Assembly: GCA_964023285.1 (NCBI GenBank)
Contig: CAXIEN010000093.1
Span: 2,247,739 to 2,311,738 of the forward strand
DNA: 64,000 bases
Origin: Larinioides sclopetarius
Taxonomy: Eukaryota
Reading direction: 5' to 3'
Shown: piece after piece, positions 38,491 to 61,450 of the stretch
Numbering within the stretch: the first letter of the stretch is position 1
Layout: every line of letters begins with the position of its first letter
Notes under the pieces: model-generated
What the model saw: only the letters and a program-made list of their open reading frames with translations
Told to the model about the DNA's origin: nothing
Database searches by the model: none
Translations under genes and position numbers: made by a program

Positions 38491-38494
38491 CGTG

Positions 38495-38719: not shown

Positions 38720-39452
38720 AAAAAATAAATACACAAAAATCTCTATTAATAACAAATATTAATAAATAAACTACAGGATTTTATCCCTTTTTTAATTGAT
38801 TAATTTTTCAGTGAAATCTCTAAAGAAAGTCCTCAAGATAGTAAATGCATTAGGAAATAATCCATAAACAATATTGATTGTTATGTTTTAATTTTTTATC
38901 AGCATGTTTTACACCAATCAGCAAGCTGCTGGACATAAAATCTGGCTCGCCATTTTATTGTTGTAATCAAATGCATATTTTGCATTCGGAATAAGAAATT
39001 AAATTTGATGCCAAAAACCTGTAAATAGATGTTACATGATAGAAACAATTCCCCACCGGTCTGCTCCAGGTATTACGGATCCTGGCGCGAAAAATAAATA
39101 CATAAAAATCTCTACTAATAATAAATATTAATGAATATAGAACAGGAAATTTTATCTCTTTTTTAATTGATTAATTTTTCTGTGAAATCCCTAAAGAAAG
39201 TCCTCAAGATAGTAAATGCATTAGGAAATAATCCATAAACAATATTGATTGTTATGTTTTAATTTTTTATCAGCATGTTTTACACCAATCAGCAAGCTGC
39301 TGGATGGTGATCTGGCTGTTTATTGTTGTAATCAAATGCATATTTTGCATTAGGAATAAGAAATTCAATTTGGTGCCAAAAACCTGCAAATAGATGTTAC
39401 ATGATAGGAACAATTCCCCACCGGTCTGCTCCAGGTATTACGGATCCTGGCG
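38720..39452. repeat. Tandem duplication, unit about 365 bp, two units
   Basis: 'aaaataaatacaYaaaaatctctaNtaataaYaaatattaatRaat...tttacaccaatcagcaagctgctgga...caattccccaccggtctgctccaggtattacggatcctggcg' is repeated from about 38722 and about 39087. Confidence 0.85.
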
Positions 39453-40689
39453 GGAAGCTCGTGGTGGTTTGGGTCTTGAACACGGACAGTTACTTAAATC
39501 CATTAGGAACGTTCTTGTACACCGGCACCAGAACAGGTTCATGGCCATGAAAAGGATGCAGGTTAAATATCTATCGGTATTTGAAGCTTAACAATTACTT
39601 TAAAGGAAACATGAATATCAAAATAATAATACATAAAATTTTCAGTTGAAATCATGTTCTCTGTGAACAAGCTGGTCGCCAAAAACGGCAAGTAAGAAAG
39701 AAAGATAACAACATTAAAAAATTTCCTGGAGCTGAAAACTTGTGACAACCCTAGAAAAATAAAATTTATTTATATAAAAATTGAATTCATATATCTTGCT
39801 ATTTTAAACTTTTATTCTCCGAGAGCTGGCTGGATAAATTTCAATGACTCAAAGGATAAAAACAATAATTTATGACTGGATTAGGAATACAAACTCTGCT
39901 ACAGAAAAAAATATTATTGATTCCTCTGACTCGGAGAATGAAATGAATTTATATTCAAAGAAAGGATCAAAACATTTACTTAGGACTGAAACAGCGTTAC
40001 AAGTTCTACTATTGAAAAATATTCCAAGACTATGTTTCGGATAACAGGATAAACTTATGTTTACAGAATTAATCAAAACATCAATTTATGATGGTATTCG
40101 GAATAAAAATATCACTAAATAATGACTTAATTACGAAATTTCATGTTGTGCTTTTGTCGACAGTAAGTACTACAGAGTATATATTATGCATTTTCATATT
40201 ATGTGTAATAATTATACTTAAATATATTGAATTTTTTGTTTTTGTAGAGATTTTATGATTTGTTAGAATGAAAACAATGTTAAGAAATATGAATTAAATT
40301 TGCAACCAGTTCGACTTACGATCTGGAAGTCGAAACGGAACTCGGTCTTTGTCTAGAATAATCTATAGATATAAATGAATTTCATTATTAGGAAAGGAGG
40401 ATATTTCCATCAAAGTTTAATTCCTCGTTCAAGACAATACTTTAAATTGCATATGATTTCCCCACTCAAAAGAATTCTCTGTTTGTTTGTTTTTTAATTT
40501 AAGACTATTTTGAATTTAAATAAACATATTAAATCTATTAAGGATTTGATTGCTAGGCTGTAAAAATTTTCCGTTTTGATCAAATCGAAAATTTGTAAAA
40601 TACAAACTTTTAAAAACCACAAAAATGGCAGACATTTGTAAGGTTGAGAACTCCCCCAAAGTTGAGGGATCCTCCTGCTAGTGTGGAGA

Positions 40690-40865: not shown

Positions 40866-41525
40866 ATTTTATCTCTGAATTAGAGTTAATTTTCCTCTTC
40901 GAGCTATATGAAGTTATCATATTTCAGTGAATTGATTTTCATTAAATCAAGTAGAAATGAGTTTTGTTGTGTGTTTATGTCATAATGCTGAAAGTTAGTA
41001 TTTAAGATATTTATTTTTATAAGAATGAAAAGCATGAACACATTACAAACAAACGATTTCTCTCAAAAGGCAAACAATGGATGATAAATTTAACTACTTA
41101 TCGAGATTATATAAAACACTAAATACTCTAAAATAGTGAGCATAGATATTTCTAATTAGCAATATTTCTTAAGTAAAAAATTGTGGGAACTCAGTTTACT
41201 ATAAAAAGAATTTTGTACTACTACTTAAAAGTATTTTTCTTTAATAAAAGATATATTTACCATCATTTATCGGTGGTCTTCTCCGGTAGGGAATACCTAA
41301 AGAAGAAAAAAAAATTGTTATAAACAATCTCTAATGTCAGTTATTTAAAAATATAACTACATCGATTGAACATTCAATAAAAAAATACTTTAGATTCACA
41401 GAAAATAGGCTTATAACTTTATACCTTTTCTTCGCTCGTGTTCTCATTTTCACCGAGAAAATGATTTGCGACACTATTTCCGACGGAAACATTTTCACCG
41501 TAACTATACGAAGTTGGAGAATATA

Positions 41526-42314
41526 CAGGGTGTCCGGCCTTAATGTGACCCAATAGCTAATTCCCGAACCGTTCGGTTTAGACATGCACTTCCAATTTGA
41601 AAAATGTTTTAAAAAAGGTAAAGAATGTTTTTACGTGCTTTTCGAACCAAAAAACCCATTTAGAAAAAAAATTACAAAACATAAATTTTTATACGGTCCC
41701 CAGGTCCTATCACTTATATTTAGGAAAAGATGCAGTACAGAAAAACAAAGTAAACACAAAAAGTTTCATTTTATTACGATAAAAACTGACCAAGTTATGG
41801 AACTTCGAAAATCATACATTTTATCCATTTTCTCGGCCATTTTCAAGCTGGTAAGGGGCCGTCTCCAAAATGAAATTAATCTGACAATACAAATTGTCAA
41901 TCTATGATGTTTACTACGATGTTTTAATATTACTATGGTGTTTTTCTTTTGTTCTTTCTGTAGATAGTGAATTACTGTTCGCTAAACTCACTTTATATAC
42001 GACCCCTTTTCTGAGCAATTCAGATGCTTCAACTTTATGTAGGCATAACTCGGTCAATTTTTATCGTAATAAAATGAAACTTTTTGTGTTTACTTTGTTT
42101 TTTGTACTGCATCTTTTCCTAAATATAAGTGATAGGACCTGGAGATCGTATAAAAATTTAATTTTTGTAATTTTTTTCTAAATAGGTTTTTTGGCTCGAA
42201 AAGCACGTAAAAACATTCTTTACCTTTTTAAAACATTTTTCAAATTGGAAGTGCATATCCAAACCGAACGGTTCGGGAATTAGCTATTGGGTCACATTAA
42301 GGCCGGACACTCTG
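41526..42314. mobile_element. Foldback / long-TIR non-autonomous DNA element of 789 bp: roughly 285-bp arms at more than 90% identity (41526..41810 versus 42030..42314) flanked by TA dinucleotides, so possibly Tc1/mariner-related
   Basis: The left end 'TA|cagggtgtccggccttaatgtgacccaatagctaattcccgaaccgttcgg...' mirrors the right end '...ccgaacggttcgggaattagctattgggtcacattaaggccggacactctg|TA'. ORFs 41584..41907, 41597..41782 and 41894..42181 fall in arm sequence and are artefacts. Confidence 0.75.
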
Positions 42315-42779
42315 TATAACAAAATAAATCATTCCTTAACGACGTTGGAAAGAAAATTTGATCAAATCAAGCCTTTAGGAAACTTTTATGAAATATTTTA
42401 AATCAATGTGATTTTCTTACATATTTGTGCAAACTTTGTATTTATTGGGGGGGGATAAAAGCTCCAATCGTGACTCCCAATACTTTCTGCCTAATCCCAC
42501 GTGGTGTCGCAACCCACGGATTAAAGAATCCTAGTTTAAAATCGTATGGACAAAAAATTCAAGATATATTGTAAAAGAGAAATTTCGCCAATTTATTTTC
42601 ATGACGAAAAAAGTTTTTCTCATGTAAAATGTGAATACATTTCTACTCACAAGTTATGCACAAAGTATGAGGCTGAAATTTCGGTGAAGTGCGCAGCGGA
42701 ATTTTTTACATTAAATTATCTTGCACATTTGCCTCTATTAGACGAAGAATTTCTTGAATGAAATAGTGCTTAAGTACAC

Positions 42780-43180
42780 TGGTATCCAAAAGTATAACAT
42801 CACTCTGAAGATGCTAAAAAATTGGAAACTATGGTTCGAAATCAGTTGCTAAAAATTTTGATGAATACCATCGTTGAAGCTCGCGCTTAACAGTGGAGAT
42901 TCATTTCTTTGAGCCACACACATTAAGGGATCGTCTACAAATTGATGAAGCCAAAAGCAGATTTTGGCCCACCTTGCTTCACAGAATACTGATAATAAAA
43001 TGAAACTTGCAGCATTGGTTAGATTTAATATGCATAATATTTTCATGAACTTTCGTGAATGCGGCACAAATACTCAGGAAAATATAAAGGTTTTCGTAAA
43101 AAATCTGAGATTTCTCCACCTGCTTTTTGTTTGTAAAATACAAAGTTTTTGGCGAAATTATACGAAATTTGCAAAACATT
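42780..43180 (-). repeat. Diverged copy of a dispersed repeat whose other copy lies in the opposite orientation at 48250..48560
   Basis: The reverse complement of 48330-48500 ('...cagtattctgtgaagcatggtggacaaactctgtttttggcttcatcaatttgtagaaggtctc...cttcaacgatggtat') aligns to 42865-43010 ('taccatcgttgaag...agacgatc...acaaattgatgaagccaaaagcagattttggcccaccttgcttcacagaatactg'). Confidence 0.55.
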
Positions 43181-45113
43181 GTTGAGAGTGCCGTGTATAG
43201 AAATAAAATAGCGATGCTGATAAAAAGCGCCCTCTTACGGAGGGGGTAAGAGGCGGTCTTAAACTGCTTGATTGACAAGCCGTATCACAACCTGGAAACA
43301 AGCACAGAGAGCGAACTATTTTTTGCGGTCGGAAAACGGAGATTGCTATAGGGTCATAAATTTGATGTCAATCCGCCGCTTTTTATTTTTGCTGGATTAC
43401 TATTCGTTAATTTTATTGTCTTACTATGTATTAATTTAGAATACTTCCTGTTTTAAAAGGGTAGTTTTCTTTCTTTTTAATTCTTGAAATTGAATATTTC
43501 TTTTATATTTATTTTATTTCGCAATTGTCCATGCAAGATTTTCTGTTAGTAGATATATTATTTAATTTTGCAGATGGCGAAATTTTTCTTTGCGAGAATC
43601 TTTCTTCAGGGAGCATTTTCAAGGTGTCGAGCCGCTGTAGCAAGATCAAATGGCAGTGGGGAGGAAAATTTTCAGTAAATGGAACTGCGTGCTCCGTAAA
43701 CCCCACCTAGAATAATCCCAGGTTATATGCCTTACAGAAGGATTTTATAAAATAATAGTAATATGTTGGGTTGTAGTTTAAAAAACAAATTTACTAAAAA
43801 TATAATTATTTCTATTTTCTTTTTTTTTAAATGAATGTTGAATTTATTTCCATACTGATTAAATTTTGCTTTATATATGAGAATTAAAAACATATTAATA
43901 TTATTAATTCGGATGTAATTCAGAAATTAAAAACAATAATGCACAATTTACTGTCATTTGGAATTATTTCATGTTCAGTATGTTGTGGTTAATTTTAGCG
44001 CTGGTCATTTCATAATCATACATAATTTATTTCGACATTAGCTTCATTTTGGCATTTATAATATCAAACTATTTGAATATTATAGAATAGAATTTCATTT
44101 ATGACTACCAAGATTGTAAAAACAAACGATGTGATACATTATGGCAGGGTGGGGTTCTCAATCACTTCTTGAAGGAAATGTTTATTTTTTATTTTAAATT
44201 AGTTGTAATAAGGAATCAGAACTAGGGAAACATATTTTAAAACTAGAGAGTATAAAAAAATATATCTAGCTTTCTTTTAAAGGCAACAAAATTTCGAAAT
44301 CGAATTTTGAAATTTAGTTGATTTTCCCCTATATATCAGGGTGCTTCTAGACATCTTCATATTTTTTGTCCCACTTACAATCACCCAATCGCCATGATTG
44401 CTTTGCGATATGAAGAACACGATCTCGCTTCTATTATAATAGTAAGAAAACTCCATTATAATAAGTAAGAAGATGAGCACGAAAAAAAAAATGTTATTTT
44501 AATCAAACTAGCTGCGTTATCTAAAAAAACAAACTTTTAAATTTTTGTCTGAAAAATATCTTCTCTTATTAAAAAAAAGATTTAGTTGTAATATTAATTG
44601 GTTGCTCTTTATTATTTTTTTAAATGAGCTGAATATTTTATAACAACAAATCTTCAAGAGGATAATTGTAAAATATATAATTTAATTCGTAATTATAATT
44701 AGTTAAAGGAACTGAATTTTAATCTTAATAAAAAAATAATATTCATTTATTGCAAATAAATATATTGATCATCAATTAATTTTTCAAGCAAATAATAAGC
44801 AATAAAAATATTATACAAAATTCTTTTAAATAAGTGAAATGATTGGAGGAAAGTAAATTCGACAACTAAAAGAAAAAACAACATTCTATATTATTTTATC
44901 CCAGAAATATCAATTAAGATAGTGGTTTTGTTTACGTAACGGTATAGAATGATATATATATATTTATTTCATTATACACATCACACATTGCTACACTTCA
45001 TCAGCAAATTTCGTCTGGTCGCAACCACTAAGTATTACATACTTATCATAAGTCTATGGTCGCAACAAAGTCAAAAGAAACATTCTTCTTTACAAAATAA
45101 TCGATCCTCTCTC

Positions 45114-45131
45114 TTTTTTTTTTTTTTTTTT
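45114..45131. repeat. Poly(T) of 18 nt, preceded by (CT)n
   Basis: Direct reading. Confidence 0.9.
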
Positions 45132-48100
45132 GCTTACTCATATGATTCCGGAAATGACAATTCGTAGCCGAAGTCCGACCCGCCCCCTCTTCTCATGTAG
45201 ATTATTCAATGAACTACGTTACTTTGAAACAAGACAAACTTTCCGGTCTTTATTTAGATCTTCTCAAATATATTTCATTCTATATGCACAGTTGTGTCCA
45301 TGTTATTGTGCATTCGAATGCTTATTCTTACTTTGCATACGAACGGGAAAATATGTGTTTCTGTGAGAGATGAATTACTAATTATTTGTGTGTAACTCAA
45401 CACTATGTCTTTTCTTTTCATGCAAAATACTTTTTTTTTATTTTGGTATTTTTCAGATATCTATTTCAAAGAAAAAATCTCTATTTTACTCTATTTGTGA
45501 CAAATTTTCAATTGCTATATTTTTACTATCAAATTGGAAAAAGGATGTTGTTTTCATTATCTGAAAAAGACATAGAATACTTGAGATGATTATGGATTCT
45601 ATGTAATTTTGGTGTCAAATTATAAAGATTATTAATAATTAAATTGTGTAGTTTAAAAGCCTAAAAATGCGATTATTCGATGAGCGAGATTTAACCCTTA
45701 GACATACAAATTTATTTAACCTCTTAATTAGAAGCCATCGCCAATTTCGAATGTATTTTATTATCTCAACGTATATCAGATGGTAAAGACCACTTGAGAC
45801 AATTAAATACGTCCAGGTGATTTATGTATTTAAAATTAATCATTGCTTTGACTTAAATACGCATTTAGATAGAAAATTTTGTATTTCGATGCACATGTCA
45901 GAGACGTCATTGTATGTTCAGGAATTAAAATAATTCTTTTATTTGAAGCGTGGTTGATAGATTTTATTATGTCTTATATTTTAAAGTTTAACATTCAATT
46001 AAAATTACCCATAACTTGGCTGCGACTAGGAAGTCTAATTAGTAAAAATATATTTTCTTGAAAATTAGAAAAGACAGTACCCACCTGACACGGCGAGTTC
46101 TCAGGTTGTGAATTTATATTTTATGTGAGGAAGAAACGAGCAAATGATTGAAACATAGAGGGACCAGCAATATTTTCTGCTTAAAAGAAGCAGCAAATGT
46201 AAATCTAAATTCTAAAATGTCCTATACAGGTTCTTTTGAAACTATTTTTATAACTTTCTTTGACAAAATCTGTATCAAAAAATGATGTTAATTTCGTGAA
46301 CACCAGTTAAATTCTTTATGAATAACGTTTTTATACTTGATGTATAAATAAACATATCTATGATGAATTTCTCCATTGAACTATTTACAGTCTACTTTGA
46401 TTCGATACTACACTAAATACCATGCAAAAATGTAACACATTATTACCGACACTAAAACCAAACAGATCGTGTCATTTACAAAAGAAGTAAGGATAATCTA
46501 AAAAACAAAGTTTAAAAAGAATCTTAAATAATATAATGAGTCATGTAATGACAAGTTATATCAAAAGTGTTTAGAGAAAACTTTCAAATACACTCTGATT
46601 TTTGTTGGGTGGTTGCCTACAGCTGCTGAATGACGGTTTTATAAAAATAAAAACTATAATTGGTATAGCGTCACAATAAATATAAAAATACAATGGCATA
46701 ATTTCAATTTTCGCCACCCAATGTGAAGTTGTAAATTTCAAAATAAAGTATATACTGCAGAGAAGAAAATGTAAATTACGCAATTCTACAATTGACGCTC
46801 TCGATCAATGTCAGCAGTTTTTAAATCGCGCATCCATCACCAATCTTGATACATTGGCAATATACCTAAAAAAGGCAAAAATATGAACTAATCACAATAA
46901 ATATTTTTTGTTGCTTAAAATAGTTTTACTAGTGACGCTGCTCTTACTTATAATAGCGTTTTTCTGTTGCCATCTGTTTTTAATTGTTCCTTGGCTCGAC
47001 CGCCTTATACACCTAAGCGACGCAATTGTACACATGAAGAATGTTTTAAATTATTACAATCACTGATAATTATGTTTGATTGTTCCTAGCACTAAATAGT
47101 GTAAAAAGATTGTAATTGATTGAAAAAACAGTATTACTCTTTGGAGGAATATTGCTAAAATATATCAATGCATATGTTATATTTATTAAACAAAGTAAGG
47201 ATATCTTGATCTTTGTCTTAAAATAATAAGTTAACTATTTTTCTCCGATTATAAATTTAAAAAATGCTAAAAATTTTCTTTCATAATGTAAAAAAAAATA
47301 ACACTTGACACAGTTTTGAATGTAAACAGCCAACACTAGCACTCAAATTAATCAAACGTTTACTAAAACCGCAATTTTATGATCGGTAAACGGTGATCTC
47401 TCTCAGCATTGGAAACGGGATGGGCTTCGTATGTGTATCCTTGCGCGCAATGGGAAGGGCTTAGAAAATTGGGAGGGGGGGGAGGGAATTGGAGATTGAT
47501 TTTTATATTCTATCCAGAAAATACACCTTTTATATATTTATTAAAAAATTTTAAAAAATGTATTGGAAAGAAGAAATTGAAACGAATGTTTCCCTGAAGT
47601 TACTTTTGTTTCAGTTATGCTCGGAAATTTTATAACAAAGTTTAAAACCGAAAATTGAATTTTACGACTTTTGAAAAAGATTTAAAAATACTTTAGACTG
47701 CCATAAAAAAAGTTTCTCCATGAAAACATGTACTTTTAACTCTTCTATCTAAAGAATTTTATCCCATCTCTAAAAACGCTATAGGAAGTGTGAAAAAGTA
47801 TAAGTTAGAATCTCCATACTATAACATTACGTTCTGAAATTGTAGGTGGCGTGTACATGGCAGCCTTAAAGAAGCACTGTATTACAATTCCATTTCAAAA
47901 ATTCAAATATTACGGGAAAGAAGAGCATTTTTAGAAAATAATTTTTTAATGTGCTTTCACATTTGTAGCAAATTTTTTTTTTCATAATTTTGAAGTTAGA
48001 TATATAGGTTAGATTATATAAAAAAATTCGGTTCAATATCATTGGTAGCAAAAAAGATAAACAACATTAAAAATTGCTAGATTTTTCTACTGACTATAGA

Positions 48101-48249
48101 GAAGCAAAATGATGAGGGTCCATGCATAAATTGATTTTTTTTATCTTGAGTAATTTGATTGAATGGATTGAAGTGTGTAAAAGTTACAAATATTTTGCAA
48201 GTTTCTTATAATTTCGTTAAAAACTTTTTTTGTTACAAGCAAAAAACGA

Positions 48250-48560
48250 GTAGAAAAATTTGGAAATCTTTATATCTTCTCGAATATTTTTGTGCTACAT
48301 TCACGAAAATTCATGAAAATATTGCACATTAATCATAACCATTTCTGCAAGTTTCATTTTGTCATCAGTATTCTGTGAAGCATGGTGGACAAACTCTGTT
48401 TTTGGCTTCATCAATTTGTAGAAGGTCTCTTAATTGCCCCAAGAACTGAAGCTTCAGTGTGAAACTTGAGCTTCAACGATGGTATGCCCCAAATTCGAAC
48501 CATTCGAAATGATTTCGAACCATAGTATTCATATTAAATCAAGTTTTGTAACATCATCAA
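48250..48560 (+). repeat. Second copy of the dispersed repeat listed at 42780..43180
   Basis: See the paired feature. Confidence 0.55.
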
Positions 48561-50419
48561 AGTGATATTATACTTTTAGATACCAGTGTACCTCCTCGTC
48601 TTGTTTATTCATGACGCTTATCTCCTTTTATGTTAGCTTAGCATTACTGATCAAACAAAATGTATAAAAATAGTCGTATAAAGTTGCGTATAAACTGGCG
48701 AGCCAAACGTGAAACGTAATATGATAAAAACACAATTCGCTGCTTGTTCGCGTTTGAGTCGCCAATGTATTTCACAGTTTTCCCACTGTCATTGAAGAAA
48801 AATTTTCAAGAACCTTTTACGAAAAATTCAAGGACTTTTTATGAAAAATTCCTAGACTATAAAATTACATATTATCGACGTCTGTACATAACTGAGTTTT
48901 TAACTTGAAAAACTATAAAATGTATCTAATTTGCAGTTCTGATCATTGGGGAATGCTGAGGGACAGATATTATAGGAGGTCGCTCACAAATTTAAGGACT
49001 TTCAAAGACCTCGTCCTTTTTTCAAGGGCTTTCAAAGACCTAATTTCATCAAAAAACTTTCAAGGACTTTTAAGGATTTTCAATGACGTGGGAACCATGC
49101 TTTCACTTCAACACGCAGTGAATCTTAAAGTAACTGTTTTTTATCATGTTGCATTTTCCGTTTCTTGCCAGTGTATACGCAGCCTTATAGGATTAGAAGA
49201 ATGGCAGGTCGTTGCAAGATAACTTCAAACAATGTTTTCACAAATGCCTTAACTTTCGGTATAATACAGGGTATACGGTTCCGGTAACATCGTTTACAAA
49301 TCAATATAACCGCAGGTACCTGTACTTTTGTGCATAATTGGTACCCAAATCCGGTTTAAAATGAAGTGCAGCTTTTTAAAAAATTCCTCCCAAATTCTTT
49401 GGCTCATATTTTAAGTCAGATATAAATTGAAAAAGTGTTTTTTAGATTGGGAAAGAACAAAAGATAATTTTTCGAGCCTTGCCTTGATTCTAAAATTCAT
49501 ATACATGAAAAAGTTTACAAGTAAAAGAGTAAATTTAATGCTATGTCCTGACTTTATTTGCTCACAGCTCACCTCTATCTCGTAAAAGTTTAATAAAAAA
49601 ATGAAATATCTTTTTACCATCTCCAACAGACCAAAAATGTTCAGCAAATAATGAAAAAACTGTAACGGCAGTTTAATATAACATAGTTTTCTTCATTGAG
49701 AGCAGAGTTTTTAAAAATTTTATAAGGAAGCTCTAGAGAGCACATAAGTACTAGTCTAAAAATAAGGTTAAAAATTGTAATAAAATTCTTAATCAAATCT
49801 TATTCAAATTGTCATTATGATACATTTAACAACAGAATGTGCAGGGACTCAAATCATTCATACTATATATATATCAAATGTAAATTGATGTCATTAAGTT
49901 AGTTAAATGGGAGTTATTTAGAGTTCCTATAATAATAGCGGTACTTTTCTAATTGTTGATTGTGATTAATATGTTTTAATTACATTTTGTTTATGTATTA
50001 CACTTAAATATTCATGGGTATTTTGTTTATTTTGTCGCTTATTTACTCAAAAAACGATCTATCATAATTTTAAGGGAGAATTATTTTACATTAATTATTT
50101 AACAACAATTAGTCATTGATATTTCCAAACAAAATAATCAAAAATAACATTGAAATTCGTAGATGGTTTATATTAATAGAGACTAATTAGTGTTTTCACC
50201 ATAACATAGGTACGTTTGTTTTATGCTTTTTTTATTTTAAAATTATCCCTCTCTGATTAGTCCTCCCCCTCGCTTTTAGGTTTACATACCGATAAAAATA
50301 GTTTCATTTTTTCTGCATTTTCCATCTTCTGGAAAAGAGTATTTTTTTAACCACCTATATATTTCTATCCTTTGGGAGAAAAAAAATTAATGAAATTGCG
50401 TTGCAAAGAACACAAGAAA

Positions 50420-51406
50420 ACTAGTATGATTTATCCATCACAAAACTTTCTTCTATATAATTATATAATTGAAGCCGGGAAATACTAAAAACAAATATTA
50501 AAAAATGTATGAAAGAATTGAAATAGCAGCGCCACCTGTCGAGCGATCTACACAAAAATTTTATCAACAATAATTTAAGTCAAGACAAAACTAAATATAA
50601 AATTTCATGAAATTTCTCCAATAGTTTTTTATGTAGAGTGGATACAAAAAAAACATGAAAAAACGGAATAGCATCGCCACCTGTTGAGCGATCTACGCCA
50701 AAATCTAATCAGCACTAATTTATGTTAAAATACAACTAAATATGAAATTTCATAAAATCCTGTCCAATAGTTTTTGCGCCAGCGCGTCCACAAAATTTCG
50801 GTTACATACACCACACAGACAGACATTTTCTAAAAATAGTGAAATCGTGTTCAGGAGCCCCCAAAACGTGTAGATCCATCAAAAAACGGAGGTCGAAAAT
50901 TTTCGCGATTCCAATACTTTCTTCTTATAGAAGAAAGTAACAAATATTGAAAAATTTATGAATAAATTGAAAAACCAGCGCCACCTATCAAGCGATCTAC
51001 ACAAAAATTTTATCAACAATAATTTAAGTCAAGACAAAACTAAATGTAAAATTTCATAAAATTTCTCTCATTAGTTTTTGATCTAGAGTGGGTACGAAAA
51101 AACGTGATAAAAACGGAATAGCAGCGCCACCTGTTGAGCGATCTACTCCAAAATCTAATCAGCACCAATTTATGTTAAAATACAACTAAATATCAAATTT
51201 CATAAAATTCGGTCAAGTAGTTTTTGCGCTAGCGCGCCCACAAAATTTCGGTTACATACACCACACAGACAGACAGACAGACGGACAGACATTTTCTAAA
51301 AATAGTGAAATCGTGTTCAGGAGCCCCCAAAACGTGTAGATCCATCAAAAAACGGAGGACGAAAATGTTTGCGATTCCAATACTTTCTTCTTATAGAAGA
51401 AAGTAA
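50420..51406 (+). mobile_element. Two head-to-tail family-F1 elements (50420..50940 full length; 50941..51406 lacking the first roughly 60 bp)
   Basis: Same head ('actagtatgat.tatccatcacaaaactttcttctatata'), internal duplicated 'acggaatagcagcgccacctgttgagcgatctac' modules, (GACA)n and 'tactttcttcttatagaagaaagtaa' tail as the 17.7-19.2 kb cluster. Confidence 0.8.
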
Positions 51407-52063
51407 AAAAACGTTTTAACTCATTTTATTGTGTGTGCCGAAAAATATTTCTTGTAAATTTTTCTTAGTAATTTTCTTTATCTACATGTAATGGGATCAA
51501 TTCATGCTCATATAATAGATGAAAATTAAAAAGCGCCAGTTCAAATTTTGGATCCACTGCGCATTGTGCGATTGCTGCTCGTAGCGTTCAGAATAATTCT
51601 TTTGCTGATAATTCTGAACTATTCATTTTTACTTACAAATTTTATTTTATAAGTTAATTCTAGTTTTTTCCTTTAAAAGTAAATTCTTAAAGATTTGCGT
51701 TTTTAACAACACAGCTTATGTTTTTAGCAACGCAATATTATTAAGTTGTAACTGAAAAACTTTTCGTAAGACAGATGTCTTTTGTTTTATAGTAAAAAAA
51801 AGCAAAGAATAATGCATTATTTTTGCTCAAAAAATATGCGGAAAATGTTAACATACACAGAGTCAGGGCATAGTGTAAAATGTGATATGATAGACCCCTG
51901 CACATTGTGTCTTACAATGCAACATTTATAGTAACATGTTTAGATAATATTCGCAATTACATTGTAATATGACCGTAGCGTCACATGAATTTACACCATT
52001 CTATATTTAAATAGAATTTCCAGGGTCTGAGAACTTTGAAGATTTCATTGCCCGCTTCTATTT

Positions 52064-53050
52064 TTACTTTCTCGTATAGAGAAAGTATTGTAATCGTCAA
52101 AAAATCCGAACTCGAGATTTTGACAAATCTCCACGTTTTAGACCTCCCTGAGTCCAAAAAAACACAATTTTAGAATTATGTCTGTCTGTGTGTGTGTCTG
52201 TCTGTCTGTCTGTGAACACGATAATTCAAATACTATTATAGCTACGAAACTGAAATTTGGTAAGTGGTCTTTTTTCATGATTTGTAAGATTCTATCAAAT
52301 TTTGGGCAACATTCGCCGACAGGAAGTATGTCTGTCTGTCTGTGTGTCCGCGTTCATGTGAACTCAATAACTCAAAAACTTCAAGAGCTATATAGATAAG
52401 ATTTGATACACAGTTTTCTCATCATAAATTCCTGTCCGTATAACATTTTGGGCCTAATCCGTCTAATGGTTGACCGTCAGGCGGTCTGTATAATCCACTA
52501 TTTTCAAAATTTATAACTCTTAAACCCTTTGGTCTACATCTATATAATTTAGTATGACGTATGCTAATAAAAATTGTAAACGTATGCAAAAATTTCGCCC
52601 CATTCGATTAAGTAGAAGGGGTATAATTCATTAACCAAATTTATAATACGCAACTGCATACGCGCGTTTCCGTAGCAGCTGCACCAAGGTCACGGGCTCG
52701 CGGCACGAAACAACGCAACGTCGCAGAAGGCTGTTTACTCGGTTCTCCTTGCGCGTCAAAAAGTGGCGCTGCTTTTTATCCCTTTGTTCGTCAGCATTCT
52801 CGGGTGTTTTGTTCTTGCTTTTTGGTAGTTAATTTAATTATGACCATGGATTGATTTTTAGATAGTGAAATTATTATTATTATTAAAGTGAAAATGACGT
52901 TTCGCGCATAGAGCAGATTCAAAATTTTTGTCAGGTTTATAGCTTTCACAGTCGGTGGATTTTTTTTTATCAACGATGGAGGAGAGGAAACAGAGAATAA
53001 TTCAGGGGAACTATACGAGAAAGTTTAGGGAAGGCCACTCCCACTGGTTG
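52064..53050 (+). mobile_element. Family-F2 element / left arm of a large inverted repeat. It consists of a tail module ('tactttctcgtatagagaaagta...(GACA)n') at its 5' end, an AT-rich body with a second (GACA)n, a GC-rich segment (about 52650-52800) and an ATG-containing end segment
   Basis: Inverted homology to 56697..57584. The tail module is homologous to the F1 3' tail. ORF 52178..52399 ('SVCVCVCLSVC') is a microsatellite artefact. Confidence 0.75.
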
Positions 53051-53074
53051 AAGTAAGTATGATCCTTCCCCTAG

Positions 53075-53225
53075 CAAATGTTGGAATTTGGAGAGAGAGA
53101 TACGAGTTCAGGTGTCGTCCTCGTCATCTGTTGGCGGTTCATTATTACGAGGTCCATCTCAAAATACTCCTCGTGTTGCTGAGAAGTGTAACGTTAGTAT
53201 AAACTTAAGTATTTTATACCTGAGA
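53075..53225 (+). mobile_element. SINE-like element of about 150 bp, family 3, copy 3, in the core of the large inverted repeat
   Basis: 'caggtgtcgtcctcgtcatctgttggcggttcattattacgaggtccatctcaaaatactcctcgtgttgctgagaagtgtaacgttagtataaac' is homologous to the 38495 and 40690 copies. Confidence 0.5.
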
Positions 53226-53559
53226 ACATTTGAATTCCTTGAAGGATTTGAAGATCCCATGCACATACTCATAAAGTGAGTGGAAATGTCCAGTTTAGTT
53301 CATATAATCGTCATACATGTTACATGTATAATTGCTTAAAACGATTTAAAATTGGCAGATCAGGACCGCTTGCTATCACATTTTGAAGTGACAGAACAGG
53401 TTACATATTTTTATAAGTTTTTTTTTTGCTATAGGGGAAAAAATTATTTTTAAATTATTACATTTTTTAAAGTATAAGTCATCAACTTCTAACGATATTT
53501 TATTTTTTGGTTAGATGCAAAAGAGGGCTTTTAAAGAAGTGGTGGGTGGAAGGCTACAT

Positions 53560-54290
53560 TTTTACTTTCTTCTATATGTATAAAAGAAGAAAGTATTGAA
53601 TCGCGAAAATTTTCGACTTCCTCGATTTTTAATGGATTTACACGTTTTGGGAGGTCATGAACACGATTTGACTATTTTTAGAAATGTCTGTCTGTCTGTG
53701 ACACAAATTTTGTAGCCATGATACTGAACAGAATTTCATGAAATTTTATATTTAGTTGCGTAGTTATATTAATTAGCATAAATTGATGCTGATTAGATTT
53801 TGGAATGGATCGTTTAACAGATGGCGCAACTATTCCGTTTGTTTCAAGATTTTTTAGTAATTTTGTATCTGTTCTAGATAAAAAAATTAATTTATAGAAT
53901 TTCATAACATTTAAGGTTTCATAGCAACATCACAGAAATTACTACTGATTAGATTTTTGTGCAGATTGGATTTTTTGTAGGGCGCTGTTATTCCGCTTTA
54001 TCTCCTCCGCGATTCTCGCGAAATATTGCGGCCGCTCTAGAGGAAAAACTAATGGGCCCAATTTCATGAAATTTTACTTTAGTTTTACCCTATCATAAAC
54101 TGATGCTAATTAGAATTTGGTGCAAATCACTCGGTTTTCCTGGGGTTCTTTTTGGATTTTTTTTCATGAATTCCGCGAAATTTCGCAATTTGTGTGATTA
54201 GAATATCTCGGTTTCTATGATTTAAAATTCCATACAATCTCTACAATATGAAGTTACATTGATTCAATTGTTATGCATGTTTCTCAATAG
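53560..54290 (-). mobile_element. Family-F1 element in reverse orientation, with the tail at 53560-53700
   Basis: 'tactttcttctatatgtataaaagaagaaagtattgaatcgcgaaaattttcgacttcctcg...gtctgtctgtctgtg' is the reverse complement of the F1 tail, followed by the reverse-complemented 'tgattagattttgg...gcgcaactattccgtt' modules. Confidence 0.65.
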
Positions 54291-54659
54291 GGGCTCTGCT
54301 AGGCCTTTTTATAATTTTTGTTATAAGCATTTCTCTGTTTTTCTTAAAAAGCATAGCTTCAACATTTCTTAAAATAGAAGAAAAATTTTGATTCAGTTTA
54401 TTAATATGCTTTAGATAAAATTAAGCGTTATATCTATAGACTCTGATGGATCTCAATTATATACAATATAGATGTGTGATGGCCACATCATACTACTTTC
54501 ACTTTCCGAAGAGACTTTTCTTATACAGTTACTAAGACTCTGTAGAGACAGGTGTTTTTTCGAAAATCTTAAGTCGCGATAGGTAATGTTGTTAATAAGA
54601 AAGGAAATTATTGCTTAAATATGGATTCAAGTAGAAATTTTTTTTCAAAATATGCTCCC

Positions 54660-55196
54660 AACAAAAAATGATGTGGCCATCACAAAACTTTCTTCTATAT
54701 AATTATATGATTGAAACCGAGATATACTAAAAACAAATATTGAAAAATTTATGAAAAAAATGAAATAGCAGCGTCACCTGTCAAGCGATCTGCACAAAAG
54801 TTTTATGAATATTAATTTAATATTAATTTAAGTCAAGACAAAACCAAATATAAAATTTCATAAAATTTCTCCCATTAGTTTTTGATGTAGAGTGGATACA
54901 AAAAATCGTGAAAAAACGGAATAGCAGCGCCACCTGCTGAGAGATCTACACCAAAATCTAACCAGCACCAATTTATGTTAAAATGCAACTAAATATGAAA
55001 TTTCATAAAATTCTATCCAGTAGTTTTTGCGCTAGCGCGCCCACAAGATTTGCGTAGACAGACATTTTCTAAAAATAGTGAAATCGTGTTCAGGACCCCC
55101 CCACCCCCCAAAAAAAACGTGTAAATCAATCAAAAAACGGAGGTTGAAAATTTTCGTGATTCCAATACTTTCTTCTTATAGAAGAAAGTAAAAACG
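54660..55196 (+). mobile_element. Family-F1 element in forward orientation. A short inverted copy of the F1 head also lies at about 54468-54495
   Basis: 'gatgtggccatcacaaaactttcttctatataattatatgattgaaaccgagatatactaaaaacaaatattg...ccaatactttcttcttatagaagaaagtaa'. Confidence 0.75.
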
Positions 55197-56696
55197 TAGT
55201 TCGACTATTTCAAAAGAGAGATGTTTAAAATTAAAAGAAATCCTCTGGGTCGAAGATTTATTGAAAAACTATTAAAATGCTCAGTACTAACTTTAAACAA
55301 TAATGCAAATACTTATTTGAATTTTGAAAACATCAAATAATAAAACGATCATCGTTTTTTCTCCATCGTCTTCTTGTCTTTACATATCGTCTAACGCAGA
55401 ACATGCTGCATAATTCTTAGAAAAAAAAGCAATTATCAAAAGAAAAATAGAGAAATCTTAGAAAAATAGATGAAGCTTGATTCTTTTCAAATAACTACAT
55501 GGATAAAAGATCAATTTAGTATCATCAAAAAGGAGGAAGAAATCATAAAACATTGTTTAAAGTATCTATAAAGTTTATCTATGGAATTTATATATGATTG
55601 TTGATGGTTTTTAATATAACGGCAAAAGTAAATTAAAGAGAGTGGAGGAAAATGTTAAGATCAGCTCCATATATACTAACTGGAACAAATTTTACCTTAA
55701 ATCTTTAATTATGAAAGAACATTTCTTTACTCACAATGCCATAAATCAAAAGAACTGCATCAAGACAAAGCAAGCAATCCCAATCCACAATTAATTTTCT
55801 GAAAATAATAGAATATGAAATGGGACATACTAAGATTGCATGTACCCTTCATTGATATTCCAGCTCAATCTGCTGTTGCATCAATCACAGATTTCTACGC
55901 TTTTGAACTTTTAAAAAGCACCTTATACAAATGTTGACATAACAACCCTTTGTGGACTTTGGAAAGCTTTTCAGCGACAAAATACCCTTCCCAATACAAG
56001 AACAAGTATTATTATCATAGAAATGACGATGTAAAATTATAATAATAAGATTGATTCAACTAAACATTTAAAACAAAAAAATTGTTCTGCAAATACCAAA
56101 AAAAAAAATCAAAAATGTGCTAACAGCCTCTGTACAAATAATTTGAAGTAACCTTACGTTGTTTAATATTTTTTTAAAAAAAACAGAATAAGACATTAAA
56201 ATAATTGCAATCCGCTTGCCGTCCCATCCACGGGGTAAGTGTCACTAGCAACTGATGTTATCATTTGCTCTACTGTGACGGCACATCATTTCTTATCCTG
56301 CAATTCCCACAAAAGAATATAATGTGTAGCTCTTAGAATCGCATAAGCCGCTCGTTATGGGGACTGTTTCACGTCGGACGTTTTTTTTATCGCGGCGGCC
56401 GGTCTTGCAACATGTCTGGGATGCTTCAGCAAGGACTGGATTATTTTATTGATTCTTCTCATGCAAGCAGAGCTTTAGATTTTGAAAGTGGGGCTTCCTG
56501 ATTGGCAAACATGGCGTGAATGCACGAAATGATTCCATAATAAATAATATTTTAAAAATTTATAATACTTCTCAATAAACACAGAAGGTGTTTTTTTCTA
56601 AAAAGAATATTTAATATTCTTTCTCCTTCTTTCACTGTCTTTCTTTCTAAAATAAAGGAATGTAATTCAACGCGCATTTTATTTAGCAACCAGTGG

Positions 56697-57584
56697 AAGT
56701 GGCCTTCCCTAAACTTTCTCGTATAGTTCCCCTGAATTATTCCTCGTTTCCTATCCTCCATCGTTGATAAGAAAAATAAAAAATCCACCGACTGTGAAAA
56801 CTATATACCTGACAAGAATTTTGAATCTGCTTTATGCGCGAAAAGTCATTTTCACGTAATTAAAATAATACAACCGCTAGCAGAATTCCCCAAAAAAGAA
56901 AAACGGAACCAAAGCGGAAGTAGAAACAAACTAGGAATTCCTAATTGCAAACCTTTTTTGCTTGCTTACAAAACAACGTTTTCCGCATGCATGCGTATAA
57001 TAAATTTGGTTAGTGAATTATACCCCTTCTATTTAATCGAATGGGGCGAAATTTTTACACACGTTTACAATTTTCATTAGCATAAGTCATACTAAATTTT
57101 ATAGATGTAGACCAAAGGGTTTAAGAGTTATAAATTTTGCAAATATGGGATTATACAGACCGCCTGACGGTCAACCCTGTGACGGATTTGGCCCAAAATT
57201 TTATACGGACAGGCATTTATGATGAGAAAACTGTGTATCAAATTTTATCTATCTAGCTATTGAAGTTTTTGAGTTATTGAGTTCACATGAACGCGGACAG
57301 ACAGACAGACATACTTCCCGTACGCGGATGTTGCCCAAAATTTGATCATTTCTTACAAATCATGTAAAAAGACCACATACCAAATTCCAGCTTTGTAGCT
57401 ATAATAGTTTTTGAGTTATCGTGTTCACAGACAGACAGACAGACACACAGACAGACAGACAGACATAATTCCAAAATTGTGTTTTTCGGACTCAGGGAGG
57501 TCTAAAACGTGGAGATTCGTCAAAATCTCGAGTTCGAATTTTTTGACGATTACTATACTTTCTCTATACGAGAAAGTAAAAAGC
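56697..57584 (-). mobile_element. Family-F2 element / right arm of the large inverted repeat, the reverse complement of 52064..53050 except for a substituted roughly 120-bp segment at 56870-56990
   Basis: 56697-56780 is the reverse complement of 52965-53050. 56990-57430 is the reverse complement of 52200-52640. The tail 'cagacagacagacaga...gattactatactttctctatacgagaaagtaaaaag' is at 57428-57584. Confidence 0.75.
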
Positions 57585-58208
57585 AATCCATGGTCATAAT
57601 TAAATTAACAGCCAAAACGCAAGAAGAAAACACCCGAGAATGCTGACGAATGGGATAAAAAGCAGCGAAACTTTTGGACGCGCAAGGAGAACCGAATCAA
57701 CAGCCTTCTGCGACGTTGCGTTGTTTCGCGCCGCGAGCACGTGACCTTGGTGTAGCTACAGCGGAAACGCGTGTATGTAGTTGCGTATTATAAATTTGGT
57801 TAATGAATTATACCCCTTCTACTTGATCGAATGGGACGAAATTTTTACACACGTTTACAATTTTTATTAGCATAAGTCATACTAAATTTTATAGATGTAG
57901 ACCAAAGGGTTTAAGAGTTATAAATTTTGCAAATATGGGATTATACAGACCGCCTGACGGTCAACCCTGTGACGGATTTGGCCCAAAATTTTATACGCAC
58001 AGGCATTCATGATGAGAAAACTGTGTATCAAATTTTATTTATCTATCTATAGAAGTTTTTGAGTTCACATGAACGCGGACAGACAGACAGACATACTTCC
58101 CGTAGGCGGATGTTGCCCAAAATTTGATAGAATCTTACAAATAATGTAAAAAGACCACATACCAAATTTTAGCTTCGTAGCTATAATAGTTTTTGAGTTA
58201 TCGTGTTC

Positions 58209-58245
<37 letters not shown>

Positions 58246-58797
58246 ATTCCAATTAATCGAATTGGGCGAAATTTTAACACACGTTTACAATTTTTATTAG
58301 CATAAGTCATACTAAATTTTATAGTTATAGACCAAAGGGTTTAAGAGTTATAAGGGTTGCAAATATGGGATTATACAGACCGCCTGACGGTTAACCCTGT
58401 GACGGATTTGACCCAAAATTTTATACGGACAGGCATTTATGATGACAAAACTGTGTATCAAATTTTATCTATCTAGCTATTAAAGTTTTTGAGTTATTGA
58501 ATTCACATGAATTCGGACAGACGGACAGACATACTTCCCGTAGGCGGATGTTGCCCAAAATTTGATCATTTCTTACAAATCATGTCAAAAGACCACATAC
58601 CAAATTTCAGCTTCGTAGCTATAATAGTTTTTGAGTTATCGTGTTCACAGACAGACAGACAGACACACAGACAGACAGACATAATTCCAAAAATGTGTTT
58701 TTCGGACTCAGGGGGGTCCAAAACGTGGAGATTCGTCAAAATCTCGAGTTCGAATTTTTTGACGATTACTATACTTTCTCTATACGAGAAAGTAAAA
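57585..58797 (-). mobile_element. Tandem head-to-tail continuation of F2 units: the GC-rich segment (57590-57790, reverse complement of 52650-52860), then two further partial F2 bodies (57790-58250 without tail; 58250-58797 with tail), each with two (GACA)n tracts
   Basis: 'ttataaatttggtta(a/g)tgaattataccccttct...gtttaagagttataaattttgcaaatatgggattatacagaccgcctgacggtcaaccctgtgacgg' recurs at 56985, 57787 and 58300. ORFs 57411..57599, 58065..58310 and 58507..58863 are (GACA)n artefacts ('QTDRQTD', 'VCLSVC'). Confidence 0.7.
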
Positions 58798-59817
58798 AGA
58801 AAAGAAATTAATAGGTTAAAAGATTTTAAGAACTATTATAATTGTTTTAGTATTATTTTCTAATAGAGTTCATTGTGCAAGGGTTTACTGCGTTTCAAGG
58901 ATCATTACATTTCAACATATGTTACTTAAGTCCGTTATTGCGTAAATGATTAAGAATCTTTCTTCCCTCTAAGGAGATACGAATATCCACAAATTGCATA
59001 AGTTGCGCCAGCTTCTTGCGCTGCTGCTTTCCTCCAATAAAACAGTAGGTTTTAGAATAAAATTAGTGCATGATTAGCAGTTAATCCACAAATGGAGGAA
59101 ATTCTAATAAACTTTCTGCACATGTAATATGAAGAACAAACCAAACAACTGTCAAAAATTATCATAAAAAAACGCTCCCATTTTTTTTAGTATTTTCTAA
59201 GTATTTTTATGTTTTTTTCTTCCAATCTTAGTATTTTGTCAGCTTAGCCAAATCTTACCCTTACTCCATCAAAAGCAAGAATCCAATTTATAACGTATTT
59301 TTGTAAAATATTTACTCAAATTCGAATGAAAGCGAATAAAAATTCTAGTAACGTAGCAGATCTGTATGTAACTCATTTTTCCCCCTTACCTTACGCTTTT
59401 ATTCTTCGCGATACTGTAATATCTTCGTGAAAATACTGAAAAATGCATCATACAGACATAAAAATGATAAACTTAAAAAAATGAGATGAAATGTTATTTA
59501 TGTTATGTTAGACTTTCGGTACAAAATGCTATATTCTGAGGCTGTCGTCTTGGTCGTGTGGGAGGGGGGGGGACATGTTACTTTATTTCCACTGAAGTAT
59601 TCACTCTACTGCTTCAAAAGTTATCGGCCTAATTATACAAAACAGTTTAATCTGTGAGTGCCTTCAGTGTATATATTATGTAATAGGAAGAAGTAAATAA
59701 ATGTAATTGTTGAAGTTATAAATTCCAATACAAATTTTCTGGAATTTAGCCTTTATAAGTTAATCTATCGTTTATAAAAAAAAATCGACCAACAATCATA
59801 TGGAATTGAATATGGTT

Positions 59818-59822
<5 letters not shown>

Positions 59823-59849
<27 letters not shown>

Positions 59850-59850
59850 T
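59823..59850. repeat. (TA)n microsatellite
   Basis: Direct reading. Confidence 0.9.
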
Positions 59851-60800
59851 AATAATAATAATTAATAGCATATTCACTAATATGTCTCGTCAACAAAAAA
59901 TCAGTTTAAAAATTATTTAAAAAAAAGAGATAAAATGTATTTAAATATCATAATAATTATTGCAACTTTTCGGTGTAAATCTGATTTCTACAAATGTTAT
60001 CGCTTAAAACTTTTTAGTGTTTTGATATCTTTATTCCATGAAGTGAATTTTCATTTTTATTTGTTTATAAATTATTTCACATACAAATATATGAAGACAT
60101 TTACATGTCTTTTTATTTCATAGAAAAGACGTTTTTATATTAATTAAAAATTATTAGTAAATTAACACTGATAGAGTCATTTTTCATGCATTTGGAAAAT
60201 ATTTTATATTCATATACATCAAGTAGATTCTTTCGAGGTTTACCATCATGCAAATAAATGAATGAATTTTAAAACTATTTTTCTACTGTTTTAAAAAATT
60301 AAAATCTTTCTATTAATTTAGTATTTGTAACACAGGAAATTTTTCTAGAGTGATAATTCAAATTTTATATAAAAATAGAATGAAAATAAAAGATATACAA
60401 AAATGCGTTATGTGATATAGGAGAAAATATTTTTGATTATTTAAAAAAAACTCTTTCATATATTTCCAATTTTTTTTATTATGGCATACAAATCTAATAC
60501 ATATAACAATATATTAAATAAATGGCCGATTTGTTTAGTGAATTCAAAAAGAATCTTGTAATCAGAACATTGCTAATTGGCTAATGATTGTTAATAAAAT
60601 CATCTGTATTTCAAATCTAGAAACCTTTTTGATATCTATAGTTCTTTTCATGCATCTTATCTCTTAGAGAAATTTAAAATATTTTATTTTTCTTTCTGTC
60701 CGGTACAAGGAACCAATGTCTCGTTAATAATCAACATACAAATTTTTAAGTTTAGCTAAATTTACAATGCATTATTCTAAGTAATAAAGCAATCTCTTAC

Positions 60801-61215
60801 CTTTCACAGTCGCCGTTATTTTATCCAAATTTGGTGCATTAATTCGGACCATGCTAGAGTTAAGTCTGAATCTTCCCGTTTCTAACTGGCTTAGAAGGAA
60901 TATTTTTGAATCTCTTACTATAACCTTACTAGTACAAATATCAGAATTGCCGAAACCTTCCACAAGAAGCGATTCACCAGGTCTCAAATGATCACCTTTC
61001 ACCACCCTCTTCACCAGCACTTCACCACTGTATAAACCCTCTTGGCCACCGTATAGTCGCCTGACAGTACCAGTAAGTACAACATCTGCCATATTTTCCC
61101 TCACTTTCAATCTTTCTTCTGGGCATTCTCTAAATCGTCTGCGACGTGCTTCAACCAAGCTGAGCTGGAAAACGATTACCCCAAGTAACAACAAACACAA
61201 TTTGTATGAACCCAT
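60801..61215 (-). CDS. AGRN-like: Agrin-like exon 1, with the start codon at 61215. It encodes a signal peptide (MGSYKLCLLLLGVIVFQLSLVEA) and an NtA (N-terminal agrin, laminin-binding) domain
   Basis: The translation RECPEERLKVRENMADVVLTGTVRRLYGG...YSGEVLVKRVVKG...GFGNSDICTSKVIVRDSKIFLL...FRLNSSMVRINAPNLDKITATVK aligns block-by-block, from memory, with chick/human agrin NtA (CPERELQRREEEANVVLTGTV...YSCKVRVWRYLKG...[22 protein letters not shown]...LMLNSSLMRITLRNLEEV). Start-codon context is caagATGG. The donor G|GTAAGA is at 60801/60800, in phase 1. Confidence 0.85.
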
Positions 61216-61450
61216 CTTGACGGAATTGATTGCAATATTTACACAATCATCATTCGGGAGGAAAACATCTGTGGGGTCGTCTTCTGCTCAGCTGCTCATT
61301 GGAAATCAAGTTCAGACTGAGGAAAAAGTGGGTCGAAAACGTTGTTCCCACCTACGATGAATCAGGAAATCACTTGAATGGCCTCGGGGTTTGCCGTTTA
61401 TGGTATACGACGCTCGTCGTCTTGTCGTCTTAGCACCTGCCCAAATTTTG
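61216..61450 (-). promoter_or_regulatory. Putative 5'UTR / core-promoter region of the agrin-like gene; locally GC-richer than the surrounding AT-rich DNA
   Basis: CpG-containing stretch ('cgacgctcgtcgtcttgtcgtc', 'ggcctcggggtttgccg') immediately upstream of the ATG on the coding (minus) strand. No clean TATA or Inr can be asserted, and the TSS is unknown; an additional upstream non-coding exon cannot be excluded. Confidence 0.3.

Follow-up and report, generated by a model that had tools for sequence, protein, structure and literature searches.

Intron 1 of a short agrin-like gene in the orb-weaving bridge spider Larinioides sclopetarius holds a nest of repeats belonging to two related families, F1 and F2, which are filed here, on structure, as non-coding rolling-circle elements resembling the HINEs of the Helitron2/Helentron type; the large inverted repeat that their copies form would be an incidental by-product of clustered, randomly oriented insertions. 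To this explanation as a whole, that is, the HINE-like class together with the independence of the insertions and the incidental nature of the inverted repeat, we give a joint probability of about 0.8. The analysis covered a window of 64,000 nt (the whole stretch of DNA, to which all positions refer) with an N count of zero; an earlier inspection (below, the sequence-only reading) had drawn attention to the inverted arms within it and to the double-stranded RNA they could form.

Copies, ends and class of F1 and F2

Copies were located by a seed-and-extend search and by BLAST of the region against the whole window, and the ends of all F1 and F2 copies were aligned together with their flanks. 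In total, the window holds four F2 and six F1 copies at five places (Table 1). A single plus-strand F2 copy of 989 bp, F2-L, faces three tandem F2 copies on the opposite strand (56688-58798), R1, R2 and R3, with inverted matches of 52061-52662 to 56984-57582 (91.3% over 606 nt, 847 bits), 52872-53050 to 56687-56870 (88.6% over 185 nt), 52170-52860 to 57577-58252 (89.7% over 691 nt) and 52055-52617 to 58247-58804 (89.0% over 563 nt). Left-to-right identity amounts to 89–91%, far above chance for matches of such length, and the right-hand copies are 91–95% identical among themselves; the inverted orientation of the arms therefore stands, and the outer limits first given for them (52064 and 58797) lie within 3 nt of the true element ends at 52061 and 58798. 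The right arm as first delimited (56697-57584) does carry inverted homology but is not collinear with the left copy: in place of the 209-nt module 52663-52871 of F2-L, R1 holds an unrelated module of 113 nt (56871-56983). Likewise, the F2 array described to the right of that arm is indeed tandem up to 58798 but irregular, R2 and R3 being partial and the junctions lying on the microhomologies TTTTTA and TTGGAA; Tandem Repeats Finder (TRF) reports a period of 430 over 57826-58675, within R2 and R3.

A second inverted pair is nested inside the first. The F1 elements of the core, 53559-54498 and 54663-55194, are oppositely oriented, as the sequence-only reading had it, and 53554-53855 is 74% complementary to 54900-55199; both pairs, F2 and F1, are borne out by BLAST and by end alignment. 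The “short inverted F1 head” proposed at 54468-54495 dissolves, being the end of one continuous F1 copy of 940 bp (53559-54498) that is alignable end to end with 17707-18693. At 17707-19213, two F1 copies stand end to end, the 3′ end ...ACTAGTT being followed by ATA and then by the 5′ end TTTTTACTTTC... at about 18690; the 5′ palindrome of one of the two has a loop in which (TA)n is expanded, and the pair is intergenic, on the 3′ side of the gene and outside its span. The arm homology had also been said to end beside an ATG...GTAAGT. It does stop close by, because the 3′ terminus of the transposon is at 53049, but the ATG is at 52976 rather than 52973, with GTAAGT at 53053-53058; the coincidence consists of a 26-codon plus-strand open reading frame (ORF) in the 3′ end of a transposon, opposite to the gene strand, and is without significance.

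At the 5′ end, every F1 and F2 copy begins with a run of T of variable length (2–7), followed by a palindrome, which is ACTTTCTCGTATAGAGAAAGT in F2 and ACTTTCTTCTATAAGAAGAAAGT in F1. Folded as single-stranded DNA, the palindrome reaches z = −4.6 in F2 (−7.1 kcal/mol) and z = −5.7 in F1, with 0/200 shuffles as good. An inverted copy of 14 nt (F2) or 13 nt (F1) is located 26–27 nt from the 3′ end; in F2, ACTTTCTCGTATAG at 52066-52079 corresponds to CTATACGAGAAAGT at 53011-53024, and the subterminal pair of F1 is ACTTTCTTCTATA with TATAGAAGAAAGT. The 5′ and 3′ repeats co-vary by family (F2, ...CTCGTATAG / CTATACGAG...; F1, ...CTTCTATA / TATAGAAG...). After the 3′ repeat come 4–5 spacer nt, a stem-loop of 4–6 bp and the terminus ACT(A/G)GTT-3′; this stem is at the expected place in every copy and differs between F2 (GGAAG-GCCA-CTTCC), F1 (TGATGG-CCAC-ATCA) and the relatives from Araneus treated below (GGGAG-ACCA-CTCCC), yet is complementary throughout, that is, compensated. 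Centrally, the copies contain (GTCT)8-10 tracts, as found by TRF, and internal subrepeats of 141–145 nt in F1 and about 142 nt in F2, and the interior between the subrepeats and the 3′ repeat is variable among copies. The longest ORFs of the copies (73–118 aa) overlap the (GTCT)n tracts, and no transposon protein is among the ORFs listed for the core and for the entire window. End alignment revealed no target-site duplication in the flanks of any F1 or F2 copy, nor at the ends of the composite 52061-58798.

Related copies exist outside the window. The translated 5′ region of F2 matches eight partial gene models of L. sclopetarius on different contigs, 14 models of Araneus ventricosus and four ENA contigs, which points to a family dispersed in Araneidae and, judged by these matches, mis-annotated as protein. 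The F2-derived ORFs of A. ventricosus are labelled “hypothetical protein”, one of them carrying the UniRef name of a histone-lysine N-methyltransferase, and those of L. sclopetarius “unnamed protein product, partial”; they appear to be gene-model artefacts of transposon origin. Exact-pattern scans of metagenome contigs with the 5′ termini of F2 and F1 gave no match. At three Araneus loci, the first 400 nt of the copies (5′) show 80–84% identity, the last 90 nt (3′) are conserved, as are the subterminal repeats, and the middles are unrelated; conserved ends with divergent middles are what one expects if non-autonomous elements are under selection at their ends only. One of these loci (L003) has two copies joined precisely, ...GCTGGTT being followed directly by TACTTTCTCGTATA..., and F2-type inverted pairs occur in two of the three, with spacers of 2.1–2.5 kb.

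F1 and F2 are filed as HINE-like because their features resemble those published for HINEs and HLE2 elements, namely (sub)terminal inverted repeats of 12–16 nt, the right one followed by a stem-loop, boundaries of T, microsatellites or tandem repeats in the centre and an unmodified target site (PMC4067079, PMC11417382). The subterminal repeats of HINEs, 12–15 nt in length, are located within a few nt of the 5′ end and within some tens of nt of the 3′ end and are palindromic in Metaseiulus (PMC4067079); HLE2 criteria also comprise a palindrome of 5–10 bp after the right repeat, 8–35 nt from the 3′ end, and insertion between T and T in T-rich DNA without target-site duplication (PMC4067079, PMC11417382). 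For their part, F1 and F2 are non-coding, have short subterminal inverted repeats and central microsatellites or tandem repeats, and are dispersed with conserved ends; their boundary letters are the T-run at the 5′ and ...GTT at the 3′ end, between unduplicated flanks. They would be mobilised by a RepHel transposase to which the subterminal repeats and hairpins serve as recognition sites, and their tandem copies may stem from rolling-circle concatemers or from read-through, with microhomology-mediated deletions following; the formation of tandem arrays is reported for Helitron families, notably Helitron2 (PMC12001565), and Helraiser yields circles with precise head-to-tail junctions (PMC4778049).

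Several points weigh against this assignment. No autonomous RepHel partner was found, although no search aimed at one could be made, and neither the window nor any of the three Araneus loci contains a RepHel ORF; insertion between T and T is presumptive; the 3′ subterminal repeat lies 26–27 nt from the end, as opposed to 38–60 nt in the HINEs of a mite (PMC4067079); and the folding energy of the 3′ stem-loop is no better than that of shuffles (z from +0.45 to −1.7; for the stem-loop of F2-L, +0.45 to −1.25). Furthermore, a single tandem junction of the window is end to end (the 18694 region, ...ACTAGTT-ATA-TTTTTAC...), and the others, which join truncated copies, are explained equally well by unequal recombination.

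As the elements are short, non-coding and multicopy, they might instead be MITEs (miniature inverted-repeat transposable elements), short interspersed elements (SINEs) or parts of a Foldback-type composite transposon spanning 52061-58798; the opposite strand ends in a hairpin and A5, superficially like the tail of a stringent-type SINE, and long inverted ends with subrepeats recall Foldback (FB) elements. These readings are rejected, as very unlikely, because target-site duplications are absent from single copies and composite alike. In addition, the inverted repeats are subterminal and asymmetric, TTTTTAC... and ...ACTGGTT not being inverted copies of one another, and both outer ends of the would-be composite are 5′ ends of elements, with unrelated flanks. 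A head resembling tRNA, 5S or 7SL RNA was not seen either: an Rfam scan of 49000-61500 at E ≤ 1 gave a single match of chance level (E = 0.94), and ARAGORN found no tRNA-like sequence or head in the repeats. Finally, the precise 3′-to-5′ junction in Araneus and the end-to-end junction at 18694 fit products of circles or concatemers.

Table 1. Features of the nest and of its host intron, with strand and basis or remark.
Feature	Positions	Strand	Basis or remark
F2-L, full-length element of 989 bp, left arm	52061..53049	+	both termini present; flanks unlike those of other copies; ORFs ≤73 aa
F2-L 5′ terminus: T-run 52061-52065, palindromic subterminal repeat ACTTTCTCGTATAG/AGAAAGT 52066-52086	52061..52086	+	end alignment, single-stranded DNA fold
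(GTCT)n microsatellite at the head of the first internal subrepeat (~140 nt) of F2-L	52179..52213	+	TRF; subrepeat spacing 142
Second (GTCT)n tract of F2-L	52330-52347		
GC-rich internal module of F2-L, common to R2 (57583-57782)	52663..52871	+	alignment
F2-L 3′ terminus	53011..53049	+	end alignment
F2-L inverted 14-nt subterminal repeat CTATACGAGAAAGT	53011-53024	+	
F2-L 3′ stem-loop GGAAG-GCCA-CTCCC	53029-53042	+	
F2-L end ACTGGTT	53043-53049	+	
F2-R1, right arm proper: an F2 copy of full length whose 3′ end points to F2-L	56688..57582	-	BLAST, end alignment
F2-R2, F2 copy with neither terminus, abutting R1 (5′ end) on a TTTTTA common to both	57583..58251	-	alignment
F2-R3, 5′ 550 nt of an F2 copy (without 3′ part), joined to R2 within TTGGAA(TT) at 58245-58252	58246..58798	-	alignment
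F1-E, F1-family element of 940 bp, left member of inner inverted pair	53559..54498	+	73% over 1018 nt to 17707-18693
F1-F, 3′-truncated F1 element, right member of inner inverted pair	54663..55194	-	BLAST, end alignment
F1-C/F1-D, tandem pair left of the reported span, same nest, inverted relative to F1-E	50419..51411	-	BLAST, end alignment
Non-repeated spacers	53050..53558; 54499-54662; 55195-56687	.	no in-window match
Intron 1 of the 225-aa NtA+Kazal “Agrin” gene, holding the entire nest	41297..60800	-	exon mapping, GT...AG boundaries

Origin of the inverted repeat

The nest would go back to five or more events, insertions or arrays, of F1 and F2 within intron 1. Two F2 loci may have been inserted by chance in opposite orientation, with their 3′ ends facing, 3.6 kb apart, and the right-hand locus would have become a short irregular tandem array. 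Insertion of the two independently is favoured because homology between the arms stops exactly at the termini (3′ at 53049 and 56688, 5′ at 52061 and 58798), the flanks being unrelated, and because the arms carry different internal modules, L and R1 differing and L and R2 sharing one. The two inverted pairs, moreover, have different centres of symmetry (about 54868 for F2 and about 54377 for F1) and different degrees of divergence, the F2 arms being about 90% and the F1 arms 74% identical. At least four unrelated inverted pairs of 100 nt or longer occur elsewhere in the window, the MITE-like element described below among them.

An inverted segmental duplication, or a palindrome formed by an error of replication or repair, would likewise put copies of one family left and right with their 3′ ends face to face, and the nested F1 pair gives the layout a superficially palindromic look. 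Such an origin is nevertheless rejected, as extremely unlikely, because homology ends at the element termini on the inner as well as the outer sides and because the spacers 53050-53558 and 55195-56687 are without common sequence, BLAST within the window detecting no inverted homology between these two and 54499-54662; the differing centres and divergence of the F2 and F1 pairs and the unlike modules of L and R1 speak against it, too. As for an artefact, long-read assemblers can create false foldbacks. Artefactual palindromes have near-identical arms and negligible spacers; the probability of a palindromic mis-assembly is considered practically negligible here, because the arms are 9–11% apart, with indels on top, their internal modules differ and the spacers are unrelated, the 3.6-kb spacer being unique and devoid of N.

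The sequence-only reading also took the structure for a fragile palindrome at the level of DNA. The instability of inverted-repeat DNA drops steeply with spacer length and with divergence, and fragility is unlikely in the present case because the spacer of 3.6 kb is non-homologous and the arms diverge by about 10%. A hairpin much tighter than that of F2, and nearer a splice site, is offered by a MITE-like foldback element at 41519-42314, some 220 nt away from micro-exon 2 (35 nt) and the 3′ splice site with which intron 1 ends; its arms of 278 nt are 95% complementary around a spacer of 245 nt, and its ends, CAGGGTGTCCGG...CCGGACACTCTG, are flanked on either side by TA (a TA duplication, Tc1/mariner-like).

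The host intron and the possible hairpin RNA

An ORF at 60772-61215 (minus strand) matches, with 100% identity, a 225-aa protein of L. sclopetarius named Agrin, which has NtA and Kazal domains; mapped to the window, this protein is encoded by exons 61215-60801, 41296-41262 and 30229-30005 (minus strand, 100% identical), and the intron boundaries, read in the sequence, are GT...AG. Since these exons flank the nest, and since the ortholog of Caerostris darwini has an identical three-exon structure, the nest is intronic to a minus-strand gene, as had been proposed. That gene does bear the name agrin, but its product is a short agrin-like NtA+Kazal protein rather than full-length agrin; the family is kept at 220–232 aa across many spiders. 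From their position in intron 1 of this annotated gene, both arms would be part of one transcript.

The kilobase-scale stem predicted for such a transcript does form in silico, both in folds of the arm pairs and in the minimum free energy (MFE) fold of the whole minus-strand RNA. When the arm pairs are folded as two strands, the energies are −796 to −1018 kcal/mol, with practically all pairs intermolecular, as opposed to about −255 to −330 kcal/mol for shuffled partners. In the MFE fold of minus-strand RNA 52041-58818, with which a trimmed version agreed, about 905 of the 989 nt of F2-L are paired with the right-hand copies, as a mosaic: 52061-52463 with R3, 52468-52858 with R2 and 52872-53049 with R1; F1-E is paired with F1-F over 394 bp. 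The arm duplex is imperfect, being 89–91% matched with roughly one mismatch or bulge per 10 bp, and its longest perfect runs measure 34–46 bp, with 5–10 runs of at least 21 bp per long arm pair. If the intron is transcribed, the arms could pair transiently into imperfect double-stranded RNA, which would be at most a minor substrate of Dicer or ADAR before the intron is turned over.

It is conceivable that the arrangement has been retained for this RNA, that is, that intronic F2/F1 duplexes are diced to endogenous small interfering RNAs (siRNAs) which silence F1 and F2 in trans, or are heavily edited by ADAR. The position within an intron of an annotated and conserved gene model, the stability and extent of the arm duplexes, the number of perfect runs of at least 21 bp and the multicopy state of the would-be target family in the genome would all suit such a locus; against them stand the divergence of about 10% with indels, loops of 3.6–5.6 kb, the short life of introns, in which folding is co-transcriptional, and the origin of the arms, which are transposon-derived, whereas those of the characterised hairpin RNAs (hpRNAs) of Drosophila come from a target gene. 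Random orientation of clustered insertions also predicts the arrangement, and similar pairs are common. Further, F1 and F2 are absent from the orthologous 4.66-kb intron 1 of C. darwini, where the search gave one chance match of 25 nt, and because of this the nest appears to be lineage-specific rather than conserved; the array being missing there, no sign of selection is seen. A functional hairpin-RNA locus is therefore considered unlikely: siRNA or ADAR activity here is pure inference, detectable processing of the RNA is improbable and a selected function more so. In particular, a natural “killer” hairpin, in which read-through of the agrin-like gene yields double-stranded RNA that feeds a spider siRNA pathway and silences F1 and F2 genome-wide, is quite unlikely; it would amount to rolling-circle transposons being tamed in a chelicerate in the manner of Mu killer.

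The biological significance of the inverted repeat is probably nil, with the reservation that the case for lack of function is made from non-conservation in a single relative and not from expression. Intronic inverted repeats of transposon origin are very numerous; the hairpin is one of them and would matter only if small-RNA or editing data showed that it is processed. The value of the analysis lies mainly in annotation: two previously unlabelled repeat families of orb-weavers are assigned, structurally, to the non-autonomous Helitron2/Helentron class, and their termini provide a means of tracing the autonomous partner and of masking elements that are currently mis-called as proteins in the annotations of Araneus and Larinioides.

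F1 and F2 explain part of the five-fold expansion of the gene, which spans 31 kb in Larinioides (30005-61215) and 6.4 kb in C. darwini (L001, 10013-16410), with an intron 1 of 19.5 versus 4.66 kb and an intron 2 of 11.0 versus 1.07 kb. Between the two species, two non-coding stretches are conserved with 73–80% identity, one just upstream of exon 1 (61348-61500, L001 9812-9662), likely 5′ untranslated region or promoter, the other about 9.5 kb downstream of the gene (20431-20558, L001 20493-20367). The NtA+Kazal family of spiders is similar to the “U21-liphistoxin” of Liphistius. A tandem repeat with units of about 260–270 bp, 80–89% identical between copies, at 29254-30054 adjoins the gene downstream and overlaps the end of exon 3, re-copying the last 14 or so codons (NIYKQHEGLCSRAE-like at 29782-29741 and 29524-29489). 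In intron 2, three tandem units of 280 bp at 37663-38498 are 99.3–99.6% identical, a very recent local amplification; a further tandem repeat lies at 38721-39456 (92%) and a diverged array with a period of about 140 bp at 32648-33708.

Likeness to known systems

Among structures that act through RNA, the hpRNA loci of Drosophila resemble the nest in being long inverted repeats with intramolecular double-stranded RNA of several hundred bp, but their arms come from the targeted genes, and they have dedicated transcription units, short loops and 21-nt RNAs dependent on Dcr-2 and AGO2 (PMC10317233, PMC10292708). The arms of the nest, in contrast, are transposon copies in an intron, with loops of 3.6–5.6 kb. 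Hairpins of transposons that are read through by host transcription are exemplified by Mu killer of maize and by the inverted Alu pairs that are ADAR-edited in human introns; with one transposon family inverted inside a host transcript, these are the closest analogues for how the nest would work, if at all. Both cases rest on direct RNA or genetic evidence, and Mu killer has almost identical arms that lie next to each other.

The tandem part of the nest is reminiscent of the Heli2Xen arrays of Xenopus laevis (PMC12001565) and of the Helentron-borne satellite-like arrays of Crassostrea gigas (PMC7492417), in which whole and partial copies follow one another head to tail in 2–7 units; like F1 and F2, these Helitron-derived arrays have internal minisatellites (PMC12001565, PMC7492417). 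The circle junctions of Helraiser (PMC4778049) are matched by the precise 3′-to-5′ junction of Araneus L003. Most junctions in the window differ, joining truncated units on microhomologies, for which post-insertion recombination is no less likely an origin than integration of a concatemer.

[quoted passage not shown] The closest structural counterparts are HINE-Mo-1 to -7 of the mite Metaseiulus occidentalis, which are non-autonomous Helentrons (Thomas et al. 2014, PMC4067079). Apart from the position of the 3′ repeat given above, they differ from F1 and F2 in that autonomous partners (Helentron-Mo) have been identified, F1 and F2 being known here from non-autonomous copies (PMC4067079). The likeness, which is one of structure, extends to an arachnid host, non-coding elements, a palindromic subterminal repeat of 12–15 nt a few nt from the 5′ end with an inverted copy tens of nt from the 3′ end, a variable T-run at the boundary and central microsatellites or tandem repeats, and probably also to a short palindrome after the inverted copy and to an unmodified target site (PMC4067079).

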